Shown here: positions 5,179 through 52,722 of the stretch, one piece after another | Layout of the letters: every line of letters starts with the position of its first letter | How positions within the stretch are numbered: position 1 is the stretch's first letter | The notes under the pieces: model-generated | Databases searched by the model: none | What the model was told of the DNA's origin: nothing | What the model saw: only the letters and a program-made list of their open reading frames with translations | Translations under genes and position numbers: made by a program | Source of the DNA: a virus | IMG/VR virus record: IMGVR_UViG_3300045988_105168 | Coordinates: 1 to 64,000 of that record | Length of the DNA: 64,000 nt | Strand: one strand, 5' to 3'

Positions 5179-7227
5179 ATGAAAGAAATGGAAAAAGAGG
5201 TTTTAAGATTATTTAAAGGTTTTTTAGGAGAAAAATCTAACGCAGTTAATGAAAAAGGATTAAAATATGGCTTATTAATTCCTTCAACTGCCAATGAGGC
5301 TGTTGTGGAAGAAGCAATTAAATTGTATGGTAAAGATGGTGAAAAGTGGAACCAAACATTTCATAAAGATTTTGAAATTGTCCGTAACGCACCTATCGAA
5401 GATTTAATCGCTCAACAATTAATACACTACATTACAACTTATGGTTTTGAGTCTTTAGGTATGTACGATGCTGATTTAGTATATATACCAAAAGAAAAAT
5501 TAGAAATACCAGAATTAAACGTTGATAACATTGAATTAATTAGTATTAAACCATTAACACCAACAGAATTAACTGATAAATTAATGACGTTATTAACAAG
5601 CGGTATTGCTTTGTCAGAACAATCAGTAAAAGATATTATGATTTTATCCGAATTTATTGATAAAAATAGATTTGATGAAATTAATAATAGAGAAATTAAA
5701 ACTGCATTGTATGATAAATATAATATTATGCCAAGAAATCCAGAAGAGTTTTTAAGATATTTATTATTTAAAACTACAAATAGTACTTTAAAAATACAAA
5801 ACGTTCCTACTATTAACAGTATTAAAAACTGCAACAAAAATTTAGCACTAAAAATGTTAAAGTCTTATGTAGAAAATACACCAAATGGTTATAATAAATT
5901 ATCTTCAATATTCCTAAGAAATAAAAATCTATTTCTTGCATTTAAAATAAAAAAAGACGAATGTGCAAATGAAAAAGAAACTATTAATCGCATTGAAATG
6001 AATGCCTTAATAAATAAATTAAGAAAAATGGCTGTTAAAAATCATAAGCCATTAAATAAAAATGTTTTAGATTGTTTGACTGACGAAACTGTGGATGTTG
6101 ATTTAGTAGAATTGCCAACTATGTTAGATAATGTTACTATTTTTAGAGAAATAAGAATATTAAATGGTATCTTATATAGATTAAATGGTAATGATAATAT
6201 AGTTTATAAAATTAGAAACGGTAGGTCTTATGTTAAAACACTAGAACCTAAAACAAAAGAATATATTATTAGATTAGAAGGTATAGCAGAAGTTGTTAAA
6301 AAACATCTTGTAAATAGATTATCTGCTAAAGTAAAAGGCAAAACAATATTTATTCCAAAAAACGTTACATACGCAGCGCCAACAACTGAAAAACAATTTA
6401 CTGGTAATATTCCAGATGGCTCTTATTTAGAAGTGCCAAGAGATTGTAATTTAGTATATGGTGTGTATTGGAAGAATATTGAAGGTGAAATGCCAAAGCA
6501 TAGATTTTACGGAGAAGAAAATTCTAATGGTCAAGAACGTGTTGATTTAGACTTAAAACAAATGAACAAGAGCGAAGTATTTGGTTGGGATGCCTCATAT
6601 AGAAGTGCTACATCTGATATATTGTTTAGTGGCGATATGACAGACGCGCAATTACCAAATGGCGCTTCAGAATTATTCTATGTTGGTCAAAATTATGGTC
6701 ACGGAGCATTTTTGATAACATTAAATATGTTTACAAATAATAGCAAAGATGTGCCATTTGAATTTGTTATTGCAAAAGCAACACATAGACCTCAAGACCG
6801 TACATATTATGCTTTAGACCCTAATAATATATTAGAGAAAGTTGATATGGAGATTAAAAATACCGACCGTCAAAAAGTCGTAGGATTTATTACTATCGGT
6901 GATAGCATTAGATTTTACTTTAATGATTTTAGTGCGGGAGGAGCTGTTGGTACACCAAGAGGATGTAGTACATCAGAGAGAAATGCAATTACAATGGGTG
7001 CGTTTGATTATTTACAAGCATATAGTAAAACACAATTAAAATTAAACGACTTGTTAGAGGATGCTGGTGCACTTGTAGTAGATAAACCAGTAATACACGT
7101 TCAAACAGAAATCCCTAGTGTTAATGGTGGTACAGAAACTACTCTTATTGCTAGAGATGTAGATATTAATTTATCTCCAAACTCTATATCAAAAGAAACA
7201 ATTATTGAATTATTAAGTGGAGAGTAA
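5179..7227 (+). CDS. large orphan protein: helical N-terminal half, beta-rich TerD-like C-terminal region
   Basis: 682-aa ORF. GGAG SD favours ATG 5188 as an alternative start. The C-terminal YGVYWKN...RVDLDLKQ...ILFSGDMTDAQLPNGASE pattern loosely resembles the TerD fold signature. No vWA MIDAS or catalytic motif recognised. Confidence 0.45.
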   Translation: MKEMEKEVLRLFKGFLGEKSNAVNEKGLKYGLLIPSTANEAVVEEAIKLYGKDGEKWNQTFHKDFEIVRNAPIEDLIAQQLIHYITTYGFESLGMYDADLVYIPKEKLEIPELNVDNIELISIKPLTPTELTDKLMTLLTSGIALSEQSVKDIMILSEFIDKNRFDEINNREIKTALYDKYNIMPRNPEEFLRYLLFKTTNSTLKIQNVPTINSIKNCNKNLALKMLKSYVENTPNGYNKLSSIFLRNKNLFLAFKIKKDECANEKETINRIEMNALINKLRKMAVKNHKPLNKNVLDCLTDETVDVDLVELPTMLDNVTIFREIRILNGILYRLNGNDNIVYKIRNGRSYVKTLEPKTKEYIIRLEGIAEVVKKHLVNRLSAKVKGKTIFIPKNVTYAAPTTEKQFTGNIPDGSYLEVPRDCNLVYGVYWKNIEGEMPKHRFYGEENSNGQERVDLDLKQMNKSEVFGWDASYRSATSDILFSGDMTDAQLPNGASELFYVGQNYGHGAFLITLNMFTNNSKDVPFEFVIAKATHRPQDRTYYALDPNNILEKVDMEIKNTDRQKVVGFITIGDSIRFYFNDFSAGGAVGTPRGCSTSERNAITMGAFDYLQAYSKTQLKLNDLLEDAGALVVDKPVIHVQTEIPSVNGGTETTLIARDVDINLSPNSISKETIIELLSGE

Positions 7228-23936: not shown

Positions 23937-23966
23937 TAAATAAAAGTCAAGGAGAAAATCCTCGAC
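23937..23966 (-). terminator. intrinsic terminator after fibre-like cluster B
   Basis: Minus strand GTCGAGGA-TTTC-TCCTTGAC followed by TTTTATTT. Confidence 0.55.
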
Positions 23967-23969
23967 TTT

Positions 23970-24587
23970 TTATAAATTATCAGAATATTTTAATACTTCA
24001 ACCTCTAAAAAACATTCTGGAGTATCCCCAAAACCATATATATAGTTGTAGAATTTAAAAGATTTATTTACTTCATTACGGACATACATCCCAAAATAAT
24101 CTCCTTCTTTAACATCTACTATTGCTTCACATTGTAAAGTTATCCAATTTAACTCCGACAAAATAGATTTTGCAATAGGCGTCCCTATATTAGTAGTAGA
24201 ACCATTCTTACCAATACCTAAAAACAACCAGTCATTAGCAGACCAAGCATCAATCTGACATATAACTTTCGCTCTTACTCGTACTTTTTCAATGCCAGCG
24301 CCAATTTTTATCCAGTACCCGTCTCTAGTTAAACGAGAACCATATTGTTGCCAAGTAGTCATACTACCAAAGACCGTCCATTGCCCAATAGCCCCAGGCC
24401 AATCTAGCGGCTCAGAATTATTTGATTTGTAAATCTTTATATAATCTTTACAATTATTAGTTTTAGTATTTAATCCAGTAAGCGAAGTATTTATATTATT
24501 TAAAACAGTATTAAGTGGTGTACGATTATATACCACATTTGAACTATCCCAATAATAAGGGCTGTTAAGTTTAATAGATGTAGCCAT
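23970..24587 (-). CDS. receptor-binding/fibre-tip-like paralog B4
   Basis: N-terminus MATSIKLNSPYYWDSS is shared with the three upstream paralogs. GGAGGTG SD favours ATG 24587; the track gives 24602. Confidence 0.5.
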   Translation of the reverse strand: MATSIKLNSPYYWDSSNVVYNRTPLNTVLNNINTSLTGLNTKTNNCKDYIKIYKSNNSEPLDWPGAIGQWTVFGSMTTWQQYGSRLTRDGYWIKIGAGIEKVRVRAKVICQIDAWSANDWLFLGIGKNGSTTNIGTPIAKSILSELNWITLQCEAIVDVKEGDYFGMYVRNEVNKSFKFYNYIYGFGDTPECFLEVEVLKYSDNL

Positions 24588-25242
24588 ATTTAGCACCTCC
24601 ATTAAACATATTAGTAATTAAGTTTTTTAACGACCTAATTACCCCCCCCCAATTCTTACGTCGATATACTTTTATCCAAGAACCATTTCCTATATAATCG
24701 CTATCTGTACATACAATTCTAATCGACATTACATTTGATTGATTTTGATTAACCAAATACGTATTACAATGTACATCAACGTAATTTCCGCCAGTAGTTG
24801 TAGTTCCTCCTTGACTATCAAAATACAACCAATCTTGATTAAAATATACTAAAGTACCGATTGTATAAAATAATGGCGTTCCCATACTCCATCCGTTCGT
24901 AAACGCCAAACAAGCAGAGTGTGTAGTAAGAACCCAAGAAGATGGAGATGATGACCATACATATCTATGACGCCCAGAATATCCAGAGCCTTTATCATTA
25001 AGTTGTAGATAATGTCCTCTGGATGTACCAGCCGTGCTATATTCTGCCACTACAATATCATACACATAACCATCTCTTTTTATATCGAGACCACTTACTT
25101 TTAATTCTTTTACATTACCATTTGCAACAGCCTCTCCTACCAATTCGCCAGTACTAAGAATATTGCTTAGTTGTTTCCTGTTATGTGAGATAGAAGAGCT
25201 ATCCCAAAATTTACTATCATTTAATTTTAAACTATTTGCCAT
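24571..25242 (-). CDS. receptor-binding/fibre-tip-like paralog B3 (poly-G at the 3' end)
   Basis: MANSLKLNDSKFWDSS N-terminus. The reading frame after ...RRKNWGG depends on the G9 tract. Confidence 0.5.
   Translation of the reverse strand: MANSLKLNDSKFWDSSSISHNRKQLSNILSTGELVGEAVANGNVKELKVSGLDIKRDGYVYDIVVAEYSTAGTSRGHYLQLNDKGSGYSGRHRYVWSSSPSSWVLTTHSACLAFTNGWSMGTPLFYTIGTLVYFNQDWLYFDSQGGTTTTGGNYVDVHCNTYLVNQNQSNVMSIRIVCTDSDYIGNGSWIKVYRRKNWGGVIRSLKNLITNMFNGGAKYGYIY
24642..24650 (-). repeat. homopolymer tract G9 (C9 on the plus strand)
   Basis: Counted directly: ACCCCCCCCCA. Confidence 0.9.
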
Positions 25243-25254
25243 AATATTTATGAG

Positions 25255-25719
25255 CTACTTTATTCTTATTGCTTGAATATGAGATTTTACACTAACAGTT
25301 TTATTTCTAGGCCATAAATTTAGATATACTCTAGTAGAACTATTTGAACTTTGTATACCGATAACCGTAGTATTTACCCAACCTTGGTCGTCATATCTAC
25401 TATCGGCTAACGATATTGTTATATTCTCTAATGCGGTATAAGAACTTAGATTTTGGTCTTCATAACGCCAATGTCCAATTACTAGCCATACACCAGCTGG
25501 TATTATTATCGAACAAATATCGTTACTTTGACTTTGTTTGGCGGTATTTGTAACTTCAGCACCGCTCGATATAACAGTTCCTATAGCGGCCACTGTATTG
25601 TTAACTGTTGTCACAGTATTTTTCATTGTATTTAAATAATTTGATAACAACTCTCTGTTATGTGTAATACCTTGTGTATCAATAAAAATATTATTTAATA
25701 GTTTTACACTTTTACTCAT
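25255..25719 (-). CDS. receptor-binding/fibre-tip-like paralog B2
   Basis: MSKSVKLLNNIFIDTQGITHNRELLS N-terminus; no SD. Confidence 0.5.
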   Translation of the reverse strand: MSKSVKLLNNIFIDTQGITHNRELLSNYLNTMKNTVTTVNNTVAAIGTVISSGAEVTNTAKQSQSNDICSIIIPAGVWLVIGHWRYEDQNLSSYTALENITISLADSRYDDQGWVNTTVIGIQSSNSSTRVYLNLWPRNKTVSVKSHIQAIRIK

Positions 25720-26382: not shown

Positions 26383-26391
26383 CCCCCCCCC
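26383..26391 (-). repeat. homopolymer tract G9
   Basis: Counted directly; minus-strand context GTTGAGGGGGGGGGCAGC. Confidence 0.9.
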
Positions 26392-26427
26392 TCAACTTGA
26401 TTTTTTATAGGAGATTGGACACTAAAC

Positions 26428-26472
26428 TTAAAGCCTAGATGCCCCCCCCCCTAACGAACATTTTTTAAACAT
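26428..26472 (-). promoter_or_regulatory. SD-driven leader mini-ORF containing poly-G (MFKKCSLGGGASRL)
   Basis: AGGAGG-8 nt-ATG. The tract lies inside the mini-ORF and the stop position changes with tract length. Confidence 0.4.
26442..26451 (-). repeat. homopolymer tract G10
   Basis: Counted directly; minus-strand context TTAGGGGGGGGGGCAT. Confidence 0.9.
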
Positions 26473-26485
26473 AATAATTTCCTCC

Positions 26486-26836
26486 TTACCAAGTATCAAC
26501 AACCGTATAATTAAGTTGTGATACATTACCTAAGTTTAAGTCGCTAATTTTCTTATCGACATTGAAGTTGGTACCGTGTTTAACTGATACCCAAGCATTA
26601 CTTGTTTTTCCGTTCTTGGTGCATAACTCAACAGAGTCTCCAACTGAAAGTTGTTCACCAGTTTTATTTAAGACACCAGAAACGATTTTTTCTGTATCGG
26701 GTGGTAAATAAACATCTACGCTCCCATTACTATTTACTGTTTTTACAACAGCAGACACGAACTTCGTAATTCCTTTTTTACTCATTCTTACATCTACGAT
26801 GTCTTCAATGACACCTTTAAATTCTTTAGTGTCCAT
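26486..26836 (-). CDS. small conserved fibre-cluster protein (paralog of 39372..39728)
   Basis: Shares VIEDIVD...LSVGDSVELCTKNG...SNAWVSVKHG with the 118-aa protein. Confidence 0.5.
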   Translation of the reverse strand: MDTKEFKGVIEDIVDVRMSKKGITKFVSAVVKTVNSNGSVDVYLPPDTEKIVSGVLNKTGEQLSVGDSVELCTKNGKTSNAWVSVKHGTNFNVDKKISDLNLGNVSQLNYTVVDTW

Positions 26837-33773: not shown

Positions 33774-33803
33774 AAAAAAATGGGCTACATCGCTGTAGCC
33801 CAT
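33774..33803 (-). terminator. intrinsic terminator ending the late (structural/lysis) operon
   Basis: Minus strand ATGGGCTACA-GCGA-TGTAGCCCAT followed by T7. Confidence 0.75.
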
Positions 33804-33809
33804 TATTCA

Positions 33810-34895
33810 TTATCTGATTGTTAAAACTTGTCCTGGTTTAATTAAATTAGGGTTATTACCAATTACAAATTTATTCTTAGCATATAATTCTTGCCAAGAC
33901 ATACCATATTTAGCAGCAATTCCTGATAAAGTATCACCAGATTTTACTGTATATGTAACTGTTTCTCCTGCTAATCTAATAGAGCTTTCATTCATCCATC
34001 CTAAATCACCAGTTGTGTTATAAGGATGAGGTGCACCAGCTGCATATCTTGTAATATAAGTAGTTTTATTACTTACATTTCCAGATGCATTGGCAGCAGT
34101 TGAACTCTTATATAATGCTCCATTAATAATAACCTTTGTTCCAATAGCAAATTTTTGAGTTGGTGTTGGTTTTGGTTCTTCATATTTAGTGATAGAAGCT
34201 TCGTCCATCCAACCTAAATCTCCAGTAGTATTATATGGATGTGCAGCCCCAGATACCTTACGAGTAATGTTTGTAATCTTGTTACTTACACTACCTGCTG
34301 GAGATGATGCATTTGAGCTCTTATATAAAGCTCCGTTAATTACAACTTTATCTCCAATATTAAATTTACCACTTGGACTTGGTGTTGGCGCTGGAGTTGG
34401 TTCATCAGGTACTGCTGGATTATAAATAAATCCTCTAAATGTGTATCCTGAACCTAATCCCCATCTTCCATTAGAATTATATCTGTGAGAGTTCCAGAAA
34501 GCACTTCCACCATATCCAGACTCAGAAGTGTATACGTGGTTGTTATCATATACTGCTTCAACAACAGCTACGTGTCCAGCACCATCGTTACCGCTTAATG
34601 TAGCACCTTTTTGCCAACACATAATAGCTCCAACTTTAGGTGTTTGACCAATTTTTAAACCAGCCTCTTTTGCTCTTTCAATAAAGTTTTCAGCGTTACA
34701 GCATAAAGTTTTATACTTCATAGACCCAATTATTTCATTAAATCTACCACAAGCATATCCTACACAGTTTGCTAGAACATTACATCCTGGGTCAGTTGGA
34801 TTACCATTGATACACCAAGAATATCCGCCATTATTGCCATTGTTATAAAACTTATTACCAGCACTAGGTTTACTTGTTCTCATTGTGAAAGCCAT
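33810..34895 (-). CDS. endolysin: CHAP-like amidase/peptidase, two SH3b-like repeats, LysM
   Basis: CVGYACGRF...GHVAVVE. Two repeats KF.IG.KV.INGALYKSS...HPYNTTGDLGWM. C-terminal [17 protein letters not shown]...PGQVLTI. ATG 34895 sits behind GGAGG. Confidence 0.8.
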   Translation of the reverse strand: MAFTMRTSKPSAGNKFYNNGNNGGYSWCINGNPTDPGCNVLANCVGYACGRFNEIIGSMKYKTLCCNAENFIERAKEAGLKIGQTPKVGAIMCWQKGATLSGNDGAGHVAVVEAVYDNNHVYTSESGYGGSAFWNSHRYNSNGRWGLGSGYTFRGFIYNPAVPDEPTPAPTPSPSGKFNIGDKVVINGALYKSSNASSPAGSVSNKITNITRKVSGAAHPYNTTGDLGWMDEASITKYEEPKPTPTQKFAIGTKVIINGALYKSSTAANASGNVSNKTTYITRYAAGAPHPYNTTGDLGWMNESSIRLAGETVTYTVKSGDTLSGIAAKYGMSWQELYAKNKFVIGNNPNLIKPGQVLTIR

Positions 34896-34896
34896 A

Positions 34897-35040
34897 TTAT
34901 TCAACCTCCTCTACGTTTTCAATTATTGTGTCTTCTGTACAAAGTACATCAAACCCATCCTCGTTGAAAGTTGTTTGGATTTCTAAATCCTCAGGCATTT
35001 CAACTACTTCTTCAATAATTTCTTCTTTTTTCTTTGCCAT
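34897..35040 (-). CDS. small acidic protein (47 aa, below the track cutoff)
   Basis: AGGAGGAATGAAAA SD region plus ATG. MAKKKEEIIEEVVEMPEDLEIQ... Confidence 0.35.
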   Translation of the reverse strand: MAKKKEEIIEEVVEMPEDLEIQTTFNEDGFDVLCTEDTIIENVEEVE

Positions 35041-36926: not shown

Positions 36927-37445
36927 TTATGCGGTTCTTTTCCAAACAAATACATCAACTGTTGCTATATTATGCGAATGTGCGCCTCCGCCACCCGTAT
37001 TTTGATTGGTGGCTGTAGCCGCTCTTGTAGATACGTTATCATAAGGCGCACCAGTACTTGACCTTGACCAACCTAATTCAATACATCCAGTACTCCCATA
37101 AGTGGTTGAAACAACTATTGTATCCCCTGAACTACCGCTGTCATTATGCCTTAAACCGTGATGCTTGTGTGAATTTTGGGTATGGGTATGACTTGGCATT
37201 TGAGATACTGTTAATGTGTGTCCTTGAGTTCCCCATCCAACATAGTCTGTTTTACCAATACTAGATTGAGCCGCATATAAATATCCACCATATAATTGCT
37301 CCCAAGTACCACCAAAGTAGGTTGATGGATTTGTTTTATTAATTGACAAATAAATTGAACCAACTGGATATAAATCTTTTATATCAAGTGGTGTTATTGA
37401 TACATTTTTATTATTGTTATATATTCTTCCATATGGTTTTGCCAT
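36927..37445 (-). CDS. phage tail-collar-domain fibre protein A4
   Basis: GSIYLS...YFGGTW, QMPSHTH, GGGGAHSHN...VFVWKRTA. Confidence 0.65.
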   Translation of the reverse strand: MAKPYGRIYNNNKNVSITPLDIKDLYPVGSIYLSINKTNPSTYFGGTWEQLYGGYLYAAQSSIGKTDYVGWGTQGHTLTVSQMPSHTHTQNSHKHHGLRHNDSGSSGDTIVVSTTYGSTGCIELGWSRSSTGAPYDNVSTRAATATNQNTGGGGAHSHNIATVDVFVWKRTA

Positions 37446-37466
37446 AAATTTCGGTTTATCGTGATA

Positions 37467-38016
37467 TTAAGCCGTACGTCTCCATACATAATTACTTGTG
37501 TTATAGACATCTATTTTAAAAGCCTTTAAACCAATACTATCTAATGTTCGCCCTGTTGCACTCCAAGATTGTAAATACACTGTAACTGGAGTAGATGTTA
37601 CAATTACATCAACGACCTGTCCACTATATTTGTTACCATCACTACAATGAACTGATTGTCTAGTATAAGCACCTCGTGAAGAAAGTTGTAATGTAAAACC
37701 TGTGCCACTACCATAACCAGAAGCAGAACCAATAAGTAACCATCTACCTTGTGGTAATGTAATAGACGCATTACTTATCCAAGTCGCTCTTGCTTCATCA
37801 GTTAACACCAACCCATTTACTTCCAATGTCTCATCTATTTGAGACCATTCTCCTCCAAATAAAGTTCTAGGGTTGACATTATTAGTACTGATATATATAG
37901 AGCCTGTAGGCTGTATACTATCACTTAATAACCTGCCCCCCCCCCTCACAATAGATACTCTTGTCAGAGATTAGGACAGGCAAATCTTTTACTTTTACTT
38001 TTCCATAATTCGCCAT
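37467..38016 (-). CDS. collar-related fibre paralog A3, interrupted by a frameshift at poly-G (in-frame at G9)
   Basis: A 31-codon N-terminal ORF (ATG 38016, MANYGKVKVKDLPVLISDKSIYCEGGG...) and the body ORF 37467..37949 are 1 nt out of frame across the G10 tract. Confidence 0.6.
37936..37945 (-). repeat. homopolymer tract G10
   Basis: Counted directly; minus-strand context TGTGAGGGGGGGGGGCAGG. Confidence 0.9.
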
Positions 38017-38046
38017 AAAAATTTTATAGTTAATTAATCTTTACTT

Positions 38047-38625
38047 TTAAGCTGTACGTTTCCAAATGTAAACTACTAAGTACGGCATTAAATTGTTATG
38101 ATTACCACCACCACCAGTACTATTTGTAGTTCCATCGTGTTGGTGGGCTGATTTATTATTACCCGCATATGTCAACCACTCATTTAATCTATAATTTGTA
38201 GACCACCCCATACCACTATTGCCTATGAAGTCATTATTACTAGCGGCGCCTGCGCCAGCAGAATAATAAGCTATTTCGTGTCTGTGATGGCCACCAACAT
38301 TTGTAAGAAAATAATGTGTATGACTGGGCATTTCTGAAGTTGTTATTTTATGTGTAACCTCACCACCCATATTACCAGCATAAGCTACAAAGCTCCCTGC
38401 GTTAACAGTACCACACCAGTTGTCATTATTTGCCACAATAGTTCCTTCACCAACCAAAGTACGACCCTGAGCTATTTTTATCCAAGTACCACCAAAGTAA
38501 GTTGATGGATTTGTAGAATTAACACTAATATATACAGACCCGATAGGCCATACATCATAAGTATCAATCCCCATTATAGAAACGTTCTTTCCTTTTTGAT
38601 AAAGTCGACCATAAGGTTTTGCCAT
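38047..38625 (-). CDS. phage tail-collar-domain fibre protein A2
   Basis: GSVYIS...YFGGTW, EMPSHTH, GGGGNHNNLMPYLVVYIWKRTA. Confidence 0.65.
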   Translation of the reverse strand: MAKPYGRLYQKGKNVSIMGIDTYDVWPIGSVYISVNSTNPSTYFGGTWIKIAQGRTLVGEGTIVANNDNWCGTVNAGSFVAYAGNMGGEVTHKITTSEMPSHTHYFLTNVGGHHRHEIAYYSAGAGAASNNDFIGNSGMGWSTNYRLNEWLTYAGNNKSAHQHDGTTNSTGGGGNHNNLMPYLVVYIWKRTA

Positions 38626-38654
38626 AATACTCGACGCTTCGGTTTATTATTTAT

Positions 38655-39217
38655 TTAAGCTGTTCTTTGCCATATATAAACCGCCATATAAGGCATTACG
38701 TTATTATGCCATCCTCCGCCACCTGTGTTTTGCATTGCAATACTGTTACTCCATCCTTTTGTATCCATACTGTAAAGGTAATCCCAGTTATTATAGCTTA
38801 ATGTAGCTAACGCATCTGAATTGTTGTTATAAGGATTATAACCATTACTATTCTTATTTAATGCTGTAACTTTATGGCAATGAGCTGGCATCTCACTTGT
38901 TGTTAGGTAATGATTATATTGGCCGCCCATTTCACCAGCCCAGAAACTATAATTATTATTATTAAGTGTTCCACACCAATTAGTGTTATTATCTGAAGGG
39001 TCTCCAACACCAACTAAGCATCTACCTTGACAAATCTGTGTCCAAGTGCCCCCAAATAAATCTTTAGGGTTTGTGGCGCTCATTGTTAAATAAATACTAC
39101 CGACAGGATAAACTAAATCAAACAGTTTATCGAGCGTCTTGCCCCCCCCTCATACAGTATTGAACTTGCATTTATAAGGACGGGACTATTTTTTACATAT
39201 GTTTTTCCTTTATTCAT
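38655..39217 (-). CDS. tail-collar-domain fibre protein A1, interrupted by a frameshift at poly-G (in-frame at G9)
   Basis: The N-terminal ORF from ATG 39217 (MNKGKTYVKNSPVLINASSILYEGG...) and the body frame (KTLDKLFDLVYPVGSIYLTMSATNP..., EMPAHCH, GGGGWHNNVMPYMAVYIWQRTA) differ by 1 nt across the G8 tract. Confidence 0.6.
39142..39149 (-). repeat. homopolymer tract G8
   Basis: Counted directly; minus-strand context TATGAGGGGGGGGCAAG. Confidence 0.9.
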
Positions 39218-39244
39218 AAGTTAAATCGTAAAGATTGTCATACC

Positions 39245-39276
39245 AAAAAGAGGTATACTAACTATAATATACCTCC
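39245..39276 (-). terminator. intrinsic terminator between the poly-G leader and fibre cassette A1
   Basis: Minus strand GAGGTATA-TTATAGTTAG-TATACCTC followed by TTTTT. The 5' arm overlaps an AGGAGG. Confidence 0.55.
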
Positions 39277-39307
39277 TTTCTCTCGAAAGTTAGAAGGCAC
39301 GACAATC

Positions 39308-39349
39308 TTAGCGATGTGTCGCCCCCCCCCTAATCATATAATTTCTCAT
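39308..39349 (-). promoter_or_regulatory. SD-driven leader mini-ORF containing poly-G (MRNYMIRGGATHR)
   Basis: AAAGGAG-9 nt-ATG with a G9 tract inside. At G8 or G10 the frame reads on into the terminator hairpin. Confidence 0.4.
39322..39330 (-). repeat. homopolymer tract G9
   Basis: Counted directly; minus-strand context ATTAGGGGGGGGGCGAC. Confidence 0.9.
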
Positions 39350-39371
39350 TAAAAATCACTCCTTTTATTCA

Positions 39372-39728
39372 TTAATATTCACCTGTTTTAACGAAGATTA
39401 GAGCGTTATCTTCTAAATACTTTACACGGTCTGCGATTGAGGTTCCTTTACCGTGTTTTAATGCAACCCAAGAATTTGATAAACGTCCATTTTTAGTACA
39501 TAATTCTACTGAGTCACCAACTGACAAACTTTCAGTACTTTTATTTAAGACATTATTTACTCTTCTTGCATTATCGGGTGGAATTGTAACGTTAACTGTA
39601 CCATCAGAATTAATCTGTGTTACAACCGCTGCAACAAAGGAAGTTATACCATAACTCGCTAAACGAGCATCTACAATGTCCTCAATTACTTTTTTAAATT
39701 CCTCTAATTGTCTTGCATCAAAATTCAC
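39372..39728 (-). CDS. small conserved fibre-cluster protein (paralog of 26486..26836)
   Basis: VIEDIVDARL...LSVGDSVELCTKNGRLSNSWVALKHG; GTG start. Confidence 0.5.
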   Translation of the reverse strand: MNFDARQLEEFKKVIEDIVDARLASYGITSFVAAVVTQINSDGTVNVTIPPDNARRVNNVLNKSTESLSVGDSVELCTKNGRLSNSWVALKHGKGTSIADRVKYLEDNALIFVKTGEY

Positions 39729-39729
39729 G

Positions 39730-40995
39730 TTACATCACCCCTTCTCCATAAGTATTAAAGTTTGCAATATTTGAACAGCTGATTGACATTTGGCATTGGT
39801 CTCCAATAGTATAAGAGATTGATTGAATTAAAAAACGTTCTCTTTGAATGTCATAGTATTGGTCTGTTATTGTAATTAAATTGTTTACAAATAATAATGG
39901 ATTGAATGATACATTGACACTCATAGTTGTTTTTAAAATACCAAATTTTCTTAATTCATAGTCCGCACGTTGTTGTGCTAAATCATCACTATAAATACTG
40001 CTGTCATTGATATATTCAATACGACGTCCAATTCTTTGCACGCACAATGGCGATGCTGGATTATTATTTTTAGCCATAGCCGAAAAGATTTCATTATTTA
40101 TATTATCCCCAACTACGTGTACTTCGTTTACTGCGTTTTCAAAATCATAATTGGCTGTCGCATTATAATAATCTCTTTCTGTATCTTCATAATCCCATAA
40201 TGAAGCCTTTTGAACGTCCAATGTTGTTTCGTTAATATTAATAAAACACAAGTTCCCTTGTGAGTTATAATACACTTCTGCATTTAAAATTGTACCGATT
40301 TCTAAAAGCATTTCTCCCAAAGTGCTTCCTGCGTCCTTTGACAAAGTATAAGGCATCTTTAATCCTGTGAACGCACGGTCATAAATGATTGGTTTTAAAT
40401 CTATTGGGGCACCAGAACCATTATCTAAAGTTAAAATACCAATAATTGCTTGCTCAATATCTGAGTTAACAGGTATTTCATATGTAGCCTCTAAAGTACC
40501 AGCTTTCCCCTCAAGCACCGCGAACTTATCAACAAGCGTCAAAGACACTTGCTTGTCTGAGTCTTGGTGACTTGCCGAAGGGTTCCCTAAAACATAAATT
40601 CCACGTGGGAACCAATATACTTGACCGTCGAATTCTAGCCCGACGTCAAATCTAAATCTGTTATGCACCCAAATTGTATTAATGCTTGGCGTGTATTTGC
40701 CATCTATATTAATTAAATTTATATTTACACTTTTTCTTTGTCCACTCTGATAATTCTCTGTAAAGTTACCAGAATTAATAATAATATCCTCTTGAGGAAT
40801 TTCATAGTTTATTGTTTCGTCTGGGTTAAGAACAAATAATCTAAAGCGTGGTTTATATACTGGACGCTTTAAAACATCTGTTAAATAACTCATACTAACA
40901 CTAGAACTATCAACTAAACGAAGGACTTCGCCATATTGACTCCATAAAGTTGAAGTAGATGTATCGGCTAAAGCCCTTGTATCGTAAGTCGCCAT
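39730..40995 (-). CDS. baseplate/tail-tip structural protein (421 aa)
   Basis: Position between the tape measure and the fibre cluster; no motif recognised. Confidence 0.4.
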   Translation of the reverse strand: MATYDTRALADTSTSTLWSQYGEVLRLVDSSSVSMSYLTDVLKRPVYKPRFRLFVLNPDETINYEIPQEDIIINSGNFTENYQSGQRKSVNINLINIDGKYTPSINTIWVHNRFRFDVGLEFDGQVYWFPRGIYVLGNPSASHQDSDKQVSLTLVDKFAVLEGKAGTLEATYEIPVNSDIEQAIIGILTLDNGSGAPIDLKPIIYDRAFTGLKMPYTLSKDAGSTLGEMLLEIGTILNAEVYYNSQGNLCFININETTLDVQKASLWDYEDTERDYYNATANYDFENAVNEVHVVGDNINNEIFSAMAKNNNPASPLCVQRIGRRIEYINDSSIYSDDLAQQRADYELRKFGILKTTMSVNVSFNPLLFVNNLITITDQYYDIQRERFLIQSISYTIGDQCQMSISCSNIANFNTYGEGVM

Positions 40996-52383: not shown

Positions 52384-52398
52384 ATAAAAATGAAGAGA

Positions 52399-52722
52399 TT
52401 AATATAAAACCTCTTCTCCTCTATGATAAGTATTCTTTTTATTAATAGTGATTTTTTCGCCATTTTTATTTATTACATAATATGAAGGTGTGGCTACTAA
52501 AACTTTGCAAGGAACCTTTGGCTCTTTCTTTTTAGTAGTACGTGTTCTTGGTGCACGAGTTGCTGTTTTAGTTTCTTCAACTAATTTATCAGCTACTACA
52601 GTAGTAACATCTTCAACAATTTTATCAACTGTTTCTTCTGTCACATTTTTTGTTGCATCTATAGTTAATTCTATAGTCTTTTCTTCAACCTTCTTATTAT
52701 TTTTGTTTTTGAATATTTTCAT
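52399..52722 (-). CDS. hypothetical basic protein (107 aa)
   Basis: ORF track; GAGAGGAGA SD. Confidence 0.55.
   Translation of the reverse strand: MKIFKNKNNKKVEEKTIELTIDATKNVTEETVDKIVEDVTTVVADKLVEETKTATRAPRTRTTKKKEPKVPCKVLVATPSYYVINKNGEKITINKKNTYHRGEEVLY

Follow-up and report, generated by a model that had tools for sequence, protein, structure and literature searches.

The stretch analysed here (the window) comprises 64,000 nucleotides (nt), positions 1 to 64,000 of the IMG/VR virus record IMGVR_UViG_3300045988_105168. The phage is an uncultured siphophage of approximately 110 kb that infects gut Bacillota. The relatives found for its portal and baseplate proteins are all distant and belong to Enterocloster and Thomasclavelia phages, and the lysins are of the CHAP, LysM or GH25 type, which points to a Gram-positive host. 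Between a gene for a protein of 118 amino acids (aa) and an array of four receptor-binding cassettes (array A) lies a leader element, which consists of a Shine–Dalgarno (SD) sequence, a short open reading frame (ORF) containing a tract of nine G residues (G9), and an RNA structure with three helices (P1, P2, and P3). All features of the leader locus are located on the minus strand, and coordinates are window positions. The preliminary description of this DNA, made from the sequence alone, had noted, directly after the 118-aa gene, a strong SD followed by an ORF of 13 codons that contains G9, an arrangement that was confirmed on the minus strand; the span given for the arrangement (39245-39349) was too narrow, since the whole element including the SD covers 39225-39365. 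The features of the leader locus are:

39372-39728, minus strand: gene encoding the 118-aa protein (from the ORF list), the probable anchor or stem for Gp10_C tips; paralog at 26486-26836
39359-39365, minus strand: SD of the leader ORF, AAAGGAG; -8.4 kcal/mol with the anti-SD (gene median -8.8)
39308-39349, minus strand: leader ORF, 13 codons plus TAA; peptide MRNYMIRGGATHR; ATG 39349, stop TAA 39308-39310
39322-39330, minus strand: G9 tract within the leader ORF, hypermutable
39312-39315, minus strand: 5' arm of P1 (AUCG); two of three pairs changed on both sides
39296-39309, minus strand: 5' arm of P2 (AAGAUUGUCGUGCC), its base overlapped by the short-frame stop UAA 39308-39310
39245-39280, minus strand: P3, apical terminator-like hairpin; 5' arm 39265-39280 (includes AAAGGAGG), loop 39261-39264, 3' arm 39245-39260, U5 39245-39249
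39258-39264, minus strand: long-frame stops by re-translation, TAG 39262-39264 (G8/G11) and TAG 39258-39260 (G7/G10)
39231-39244, minus strand: 3' arm of P2 (GGUAUGACAAUCUU), from fold and alignment
39225-39228, minus strand: 3' arm of P1 (CGAU); its end is 7 nt upstream of the cassette-1 ATG (39217)

Hypermutable leader tract and covarying RNA structure

The locus was compared in approximately 45 contigs, which were sorted into lineages a to h (a, the window and L003; b, L001-L012 and L034-36; c, L017-20, L037, and L049-50; d, L028-31; e, L032-33; f, L014-16; g, L024-27; h, L047-48). Lineages a-d all carry the SD, the leader ORF, the tract, and P1-P2-P3, with the flanking gene being 71-95% identical. 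The AAGGAG core of the leader SD is preserved across lineages a-f, and in lineage f it drives a real cassette gene; a comparable AAAGGAGG precedes a 132-aa gene in lineage g. The leader peptide differs among the lineages (MRNYSIRGG, MIKTLARGG, MNMIYKVHASRG, and MNNMIARGG), and the start codon and the tract are kept. A conserved SD and ATG together with an unconserved peptide are as expected of a regulatory upstream ORF (uORF).

On the plus strand, the window contains six C runs of 8-10 nt, none of 6-7 nt, and four of 5 nt; approximately 0.09 runs of at least 8 nt are expected from base composition. On the coding strand, the six long runs consist of G, and every one of them is located within the two receptor-binding arrays (39322, 39142, and 37936; 26442, 26383, and 24642). 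Homopolymers of 7-8 nt or more were regarded as slip-prone. The leader tract differs in length between nearly identical contigs: L049 and L050, with no substitution in 1174 nt, carry G8 and G11, respectively, and L008 and L011, with one substitution in 3001 nt, carry G8 and G9. In the case of L014 and L016, a cassette tract is the sole difference. Among 27 related contigs, leader tracts of G7 (2 contigs), G8 (10), G9 (13), G10 (1), and G11 (1) were found; 11 of the 27 leaders are in the short frame and 16 in a long frame, with all three frames represented. The leader tract is hypermutable.

With G9, as sequenced, the leader stops at TAA 39308-39310 (short frame). Re-translation at other tract lengths gave the product MRNYMIRGGRHIAKIVVPSNFREKGGIL for G8 or G11, ending at TAG 39262-39264, and MRNYMIRGGDTSLRLSCLLTFERKEVYYS for G7 or G10, ending at TAG 39258-39260; at any tract length, the longest product in the window comprises at most 30 codons. 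It had been stated that the G9 leader stops at TAA 39308 ahead of the hairpin and that the G8 and G10 frames stay open until TAG stops in the hairpin apex, and the re-translation agrees on both points. The short-frame UAA is found 11 nt past the tract in every sequence of lineages a-d; the U completing this stop is invariant though unpaired, and the motif UAAGA at the helix base is likewise invariant. The stop of the G7/G10 frame lies within the P3 apex in all four of these lineages. The G8 frame also stops in the apex in lineages a-c; in lineage d, its stop is 3 nt short of P3, a position that still puts the ribosome over the 5' arm of P3.

Several other roles of these sequences were considered and rejected. 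The layout of a -1 programmed frameshift signal is present, but the -1 frame comes to its end in the P3 apex after approximately 30 codons. For a gene-60-like bypass from the leader to cassette 1, take-off and landing codons that match were not seen in lineage a. A second small ORF that would relay ribosomes from P2 to cassette 1 (AUG ACA AUC UUU ACG AUU UAA) is unconserved, with AUA in lineage b, and no conserved start is found at a workable spacing from the AAAGGAGG in P3, as a true SD would have it.

A terminator-like hairpin had been placed downstream of the leader by the preliminary description. It is present, 32 bases past the stop (GGAGGTATA..TATACCTC, 5' arm also given as GAGGTATA with the span 39245-39275, then T5; 39245-39276), but represents only the apex of a larger structure. 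The hairpin sequence is single in the window (0 expected by chance). Its 8 bp form the core of the 16-bp helix P3, in which, according to the predicted fold, the U run is paired with a run of A residues further upstream, and P2 (14 bp) and the short P1 enclose P3 in a structure of approximately 90 nt (39225-39315). The G tract is located upstream of the hairpin and is predicted to be unpaired in it.

The leader RNA has a predicted folding energy of -46 kcal/mol (z = -5.5 versus dinucleotide shuffles), and lineages a-d each fold alone into P1-P2-P3 (-32 to -42 kcal/mol, z -5.8 to -7.2). RNAalifold applied to the alignment yielded 31 pairs, 9 of them with compensatory changes. In the alignment, 94.6% of the cells are paired compared with 43-52% with slid partners, and nine pairs show double changes compared with 0-2. 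Compensatory changes affect 6 of 13 pairs in P2, for which the variants AAGAUUGUC/GACAAUCUU, AAGACUAUU/AAUAGUCUU, and AAGACCG/CGGUCUU occur across lineages; in lineage c, one pair passes through G-U, A-U, and G-C. P3 is paired in 100% of the alignment cells and has one compensatory pair, and its stem base AAAGGAGG/CCUCUUUU is invariant. A covariance model detected the element once per genome and at the leader site only, neither array B nor lineages e-h containing a copy, and an Rfam scan of 38900-39800 gave chance-level matches only (E >= 1.4). Because of the compensatory evolution in P1 and P2, the P1-P2-P3 structure is, as judged from the alignment, under selection. It is an undescribed phage RNA element with clear covariation. 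A miniature inverted-repeat mobile element was rejected as its origin: the structure is present as a single copy at the same site, has no flanking direct repeat or target duplication, and its arms covary.

As a potential terminator, P3 has an energy of -12.6 kcal/mol for the core and -17 kcal/mol with the A:U extension. The base of its stem comprises four G-C pairs, and GG comes after the U5 run (U4 in lineages c and d). It is absent from the listing of a consensus terminator scan; in our own scan of this strand, it is among the four best intergenic hairpins. The other three (33780, 23945, and 52390, minus strand) are located at logical operon ends: the hairpin at 33780 (GGGCUACAGCGAUGUAGCCC then U7) follows the gene at 33810-34904, presumed to encode a lysin by synteny, that at 23945 follows the last cassette of array B, and that at 52390 follows a 107-aa gene (52399-52722), probably a structural gene. 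A consensus promoter scan detected none between the hairpin and cassette 1.

Poly-T runs of variable length are found beside the structure, namely T6-T9 between P1 and the cassette-1 ATG in lineage b (L001/L004/L006/L036, ~5505-5520) and T4-T6 between the 3' arms of P2 and P1 in lineage c (L017/L018/L020, ~5505). They may constitute a second slippage-prone spacer.

Receptor-binding arrays and related loci

All four ORFs behind the leader match Pfam Gp10_C and, in addition, C-terminal parts of tail and tail-fibre PHROGs:

38655-39217, minus strand: cassette 1 (Gp10_C tip); long head MNKGKTYVKNSPVLINASSILYEGGG; tract 39142-39149; no SD
38047-38625, minus strand: cassette 2 (Gp10_C); no SD
37467-38016, minus strand: cassette 3 (Gp10_C); tract 37936-37945, G10; head MANYGKVKVKDLPVLISDKSIYCEGGG; no SD
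36927-37445, minus strand: cassette 4 (Gp10_C); no SD

Cassettes 1 and 3 contain their own G tracts at about codon 25 after a shared long head. Both are out of frame as sequenced and need G9; in cassette 1, which has G8 in the window and tract lengths of 6-10 in the relatives, G6 would restore the frame as well. In each of the two, an additional start is available in a different frame (ATG 39153 and GTG 37949), and the tract can yield a full-length, a head-less, or no protein, with cassette 3 at G10 corresponding to the head-less frame. Most genes and the leaders of both arrays have strong SDs, unlike the cassettes: all Gp10_C cassettes as well as B2-B4 of the second array (36927-39217 and 23970-25719) are without an SD (~0 kcal/mol versus the gene median of -8.8). 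For the cassette-1 ATG, which is located 7-10 nt after P1 in lineages a-c, the value with the anti-SD is +0.3 kcal/mol. The gaps between cassettes measure 12-36 nt in both arrays, which together with the missing SDs suggests a relay translation along the arrays by termination and reinitiation.

The 118-aa protein has 134 homologues, from gut metagenome phages, and at least 190 contigs carry one single allele of it. No match was found in Pfam or PHROG, and among GenBank phages (megablast, tblastn) nothing matched the leader locus or the 118-aa protein. In L038 (3001-3600), its first 96 aa and a Gp10_C domain form one fused ORF; on this ground, the 118-aa protein is probably the anchor to which the separate tips attach. 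In L044-L046, the N-terminal domain of the 118-aa/116-aa protein is fused to longer receptor-binding domains, which are of the tail-collar type in L046. Taken together, the fusions in L038 and L044-L046 indicate that anchor and tips are split into separate genes in the window.

The tracts also serve as recombination or deletion joints. Head/body chimeras that have lost the intervening cassettes were found in L009 (5587, 7142) and L006 (8156). In L013 (5407), a deletion variant within lineage b, the head of the leader has been fused through the tract with the last cassette's body, and this fusion can be brought into frame. Lineage f is devoid of the leader and the hairpin; here, the leader-type SD drives an intact long-head tract cassette, which is ON in L016 and OFF in L014/15. 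As far as lineage f and L013 indicate, leader-like heads can serve cassettes. The number of cassettes per relative ranges from 0 to about 9. Lineage g has none, and the conserved 132-aa gene directly follows the anchor gene; in lineage h, one tract-less cassette is located directly after the anchor gene without a leader. Lineages a, b, c, and e have kept a leader tract without interruption. The cassette that follows in lineage d is preceded by an SD of its own.

The second array (array B) is headed by the paralogous 116-aa gene (26486-26836), followed by a strong SD, a short ORF, and poly-G:

26383-26472, minus strand: array B leader; ATG 26472; tracts G10 26442-26451 and G9 26383-26391

The array B leader RNA is strongly structured (z = -6.1), and its tracts are predicted to be stem strands. 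At the first tract, one of three frames passes hairpin 1. The second tract picks among three stops, which lie in the loop of hairpin 2, 14 nt before the TTG of cassette B1, and 5 nt past this TTG. Three relatives (L040, L042, and L043) share the frame logic, which is conserved even across a frame-preserving 3-nt indel. A further G9 tract (24642-24650, minus strand) is located in the 3' end of cassette B3 (24571-25242). At other lengths of this tract, the last 23 residues of B3 are lost and the stop moves from 31 nt downstream to approximately 35 nt upstream of the B4 ATG. The tract length could alter the C-terminus of B3, its coupling to B4, or both.

Outside the receptor-binding arrays, L021 (7449-10492) contains a DNA polymerase III alpha subunit split by an intein, beside an HNH/NUMOD homing-endonuclease gene.

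Proposed role of the leader tract and alternative explanations

We propose that the segment acts as the regulatory head of a phase-variable receptor-binding tip array. Slippage in the tract would shift the leader ribosome among three stop positions. With G9, the ribosome would stop at the foot of P2, so that P3 stays intact and the structure closed. With G8 and with G7/G10, it would traverse P2 and climb the 5' arm of P3 to the apex stops. This invasion of P3 in the long frames would open the structure and lead to increased expression of the SD-less cassettes, because termination at P3 is relieved, because the cassette-1 start (7 nt beyond P1) is unmasked, or both. That tract length sets the stop of the leader ribosome relative to the hairpin, and thereby gates the tip array, is the reading towards which we lean, tentatively and somewhat short of an even chance. 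In favour of it are the preservation of the leader SD and ATG next to an unconserved peptide, the invariant position of the short-frame UAA, the long-frame stops at P3, the likeness of P3 to hairpins at operon ends, the missing SDs of the cassettes, and the parallel arrangement in the array B leader. Within this gate model, relief of termination at P3 and a post-transcriptional unmasking of the cassette-1 start are given roughly equal weight. The more far-reaching version, a three-state master dimmer in which uORF slippage heritably and reversibly sets the expression of the whole array above the ON/OFF tract of each cassette, is rather unlikely.

The preliminary description had interpreted the arrangement as a phase-variable attenuator. 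This claim is borne out in so far as leader, tract, and hairpin are co-conserved in four lineages, the tract length varies between near-identical genomes, and P3 rivals the best terminator-like hairpins. A number of observations weigh against it and, in part, against any gating by the tract. A mutually exclusive antiterminator helix was not found; the folds show P1, P2, P3, and a weak internal hairpin of 3-4 bp, and by eye the CU-rich internal loop could form only about 5-6 weak pairs with AGGAGG. The covarying helices P1 and P2 form only on RNA that has already been read through P3, and the function would therefore be post-transcriptional at least in part. A tight terminator at P3 would also starve the conserved downstream genes for the 132-aa and 359-aa proteins. 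In Bacillus subtilis, transcription and translation are reportedly largely uncoupled (Johnson et al. 2020), with the polymerase outrunning the ribosomes, which weakens a purely transcriptional version for a Bacillota host.

The comparison of the relatives adds to these points. In lineage d (L028-30), a G-to-A exchange interrupts the tract (GGGGGGAGG) and locks the short frame, yet the ORF and the hairpin are kept, and L030 still has six cassettes behind its locked tract. In lineage e, SD, leader, and tract have all been kept; the hairpin found there is another, weaker one, without a U run and without a match to the structure. Lineages f, g, and h lack the element, though f and h have Gp10_C cassettes, and absence of the arrangement from related phages with the same fibre genes had been named beforehand as an observation that would refute the attenuator. 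The states of the leader and of cassette 1 are unassociated (Fisher p = 0.66), cassette 1 being ON in 4 of 8 contigs with a short-frame leader and in 10 of 15 with a long-frame leader. The layout of the three stops alone has a chance probability of ~0.06-0.07 in composition-preserving shuffles, and the lineages are related to each other and not independent.

Many of these observations could be accommodated by a constitutive RNA element, either a fixed leaky terminator or an RNase III-type processing or stability site, with the tract as a passenger. In this case, the hairpin would divide the baseplate genes and the tip array and fix the dosage of the one relative to the other, the leader would only load and release ribosomes, and the tract would persist through recombination or conversion with the cassette tracts, its length being without regulatory consequence. 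The retention of uORF and hairpin behind the locked tract of lineage d fits a passenger tract, as do the demonstrable recombination joints in L009, L006, and L013, the missing association between leader and cassette states, and the insignificance of the frame layout taken alone. The leader tract lengths (mode G9, then G8) are distributed as in cassette 1, which is compatible with a mutational equilibrium, and the covariation of P1 and P2 points to a role on read-through RNA. On the other hand, if the leader is translated, for which its conserved SD and ATG speak, two of the three tract states force ribosomes through P2 and P3, and since these helices must be unwound in the long frames, full indifference to tract length is physically unlikely. 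The uninterrupted tract has been kept in lineages a, b, c, and e, and the unrelated leader of array B likewise joins a uORF, poly-G, and structure with a conserved frame logic. We regard the constitutive element as possible but doubtful.

It is unlikely that the leader is a head left over from a first cassette that was lost and the hairpin the old terminator of that cassette, with a slot that is refillable by recombination and nothing being regulated. Such a slot is suggested by lineage f, where the same SD drives an intact poly-G cassette, by L013, where the tract links the leader head with the body of the last cassette, and by the position of the lineage h cassette directly after the anchor gene. 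The leader flanks, however, have no significant similarity to any cassette head or body. The SD, the ATG, and the ORF into the tract have been kept in five lineages despite an intergenic divergence of ~30% between the most distant of these (a rough value, by eye), and P1 and P2 show compensatory evolution. The local alignments behind this comparison of flanks and cassettes, judged against shuffles, gave p >= 0.19 after the tract and, as the best value before the tract, 0.028 prior to correction for multiple tests; they do not support a similarity that had been suspected by eye.

A gate at the level of translation only and of opposite polarity is very unlikely. Here, refolding of the helix would carry the short-frame stop at the foot of P2 close to the cassette-1 AUG, 7 nt past P1, and the ribosome that has terminated there would re-initiate on the SD-less cassette across the hairpin base in a shunt-like or bridged manner; the long frames, which end in the apex ~45 nt upstream of the cassette-1 AUG, would deliver no ribosomes. 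The invariant UAAGA stop at the helix base in lineages a-d, the SD-less cassette-1 ATG 7-10 nt past P1 in lineages a-c, and the relay translation suggested by the SD-less cassettes with spacings of 12-36 nt are in line with this mechanism. The same holds for the locked lineage d, which sits in the short frame, and for lineage e and array B, where one tract state takes the leader stop to an overlap with, or to within 5 nt of, the next start, as in classical coupling. We know of no bacterial precedent for re-initiation across a 90-nt hairpin. The next cassette of lineage d has its own SD and does not need coupling, and cassette 1 is ON no more often with a short-frame leader (4/8 versus 10/15). 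Finally, homopolymers of at least 9 nt are error-prone and the data are consensus assemblies rather than reads, but that the tract differences are sequencing or assembly errors and the hairpin a chance inverted repeat is hardly credible, because the tracts vary in dozens of assemblies from different studies and assemblers, only G runs within receptor-binding genes vary, with ON/OFF gene calls following this variation, and the hairpin covaries and folds far from the shuffled expectation.

Relation to known switches and significance

The leader peptides trpL and pheL (Yanofsky) are the classical examples of attenuators, and antibiotic-sensing attenuators have reportedly been found in Bacillota (Dar et al. 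2016). The gate proposed here resembles the trp type in that a short SD-led ORF is located just upstream of a terminator-like hairpin and the position of the ribosome is the proposed signal. It differs in its input, which would be a heritable frameshift and not stalling on regulatory codons or a drug, as well as in the absence of an antiterminator helix and of a codon run and in the two additional helices wrapped around P3. The preliminary description knew of no leader-peptide attenuator driven by a hypermutable tract, and our literature search found no leader ORF with its frame set by such a tract.

In Campylobacter phages, G runs of 8-11 nt reportedly slip and switch receptor-binding proteins ON and OFF, resulting in mixed virion populations. 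The neighbouring cassettes behave like the Campylobacter phage genes in this respect: in cassettes 1 and 3, the tract is located inside the receptor-binding ORF. The leader falls outside this class, since its tract sits in a 13-codon ORF and no tract length yields a receptor-binding protein; only in L013 does the leader head become part of such an ORF. Further differences from the Campylobacter phages are the Gram-positive host and the presence of up to eight tracts in tandem cassettes, which double as recombination joints. The hypermutable poly-G tracts of Campylobacter phage receptor-binding genes (Sorensen et al. 2021, Cell Rep 35:109214) are cited in PMC12823448 and PMC10877375.

Length-variable repeats in mRNA leaders occur in other bacteria. 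In the tlpB leader of Helicobacter pylori, a variable G repeat is targeted by the small RNA RepG and tunes downstream expression post-transcriptionally (PMC8295292). The likeness lies in the length-variable G run in an mRNA leader; RepG acts in trans on an untranslated leader, whereas the tract described here is part of a uORF, and no small RNA is known to act on it. In the 5' untranslated region of Haemophilus influenzae hmw, a repeat hairpin is cut by RNase III and needed for phase-variable expression (PMC12721329). Both systems combine a simple-sequence repeat with a long, stable hairpin in the 5' leader. The heptamer repeats of hmw form one arm of the hairpin, whereas the tract of the array A leader is located upstream and predicted to be unpaired; the array B tracts, by contrast, are predicted stem strands. 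In lic1 of H. influenzae, the length of a CAAT repeat picks the frame and the start codon, so that expression can take more than two states. A similar situation is found in cassettes 1 and 3, whose long head and short start (ATG or GTG) belong to different frames, but lic1 concerns the protein's own ORF and not an upstream leader coupled to an RNA structure. Other diversifiers of phage tail fibres, the invertible segments Mu G and P1 C and diversity-generating retroelements (cited in PMC12823448), serve the same end of stochastic, heritable switching of host recognition and achieve it by inversion or mutagenic retrohoming instead of homopolymer slippage.

As a master dimmer, the leader would be the first leader-peptide attenuator with a hypermutable tract as its input instead of a metabolite or a drug. 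If the proposed gate is correct, slippage as in contingency loci and control by a leader ORF and a hairpin would be merged into one heritable, stochastic regulator, which would add a population-level dosage layer over up to eight independently switching tip cassettes and a second array. Should the tract turn out to be a passenger, the conserved structure of 90 nt would still be a phage RNA element that had not been described. Phages of this group occur commonly in metagenomes of the human gut, and the locus bears on how uncultured phages of gut Bacillota track variable host surfaces and on the prediction of host range from sequence.

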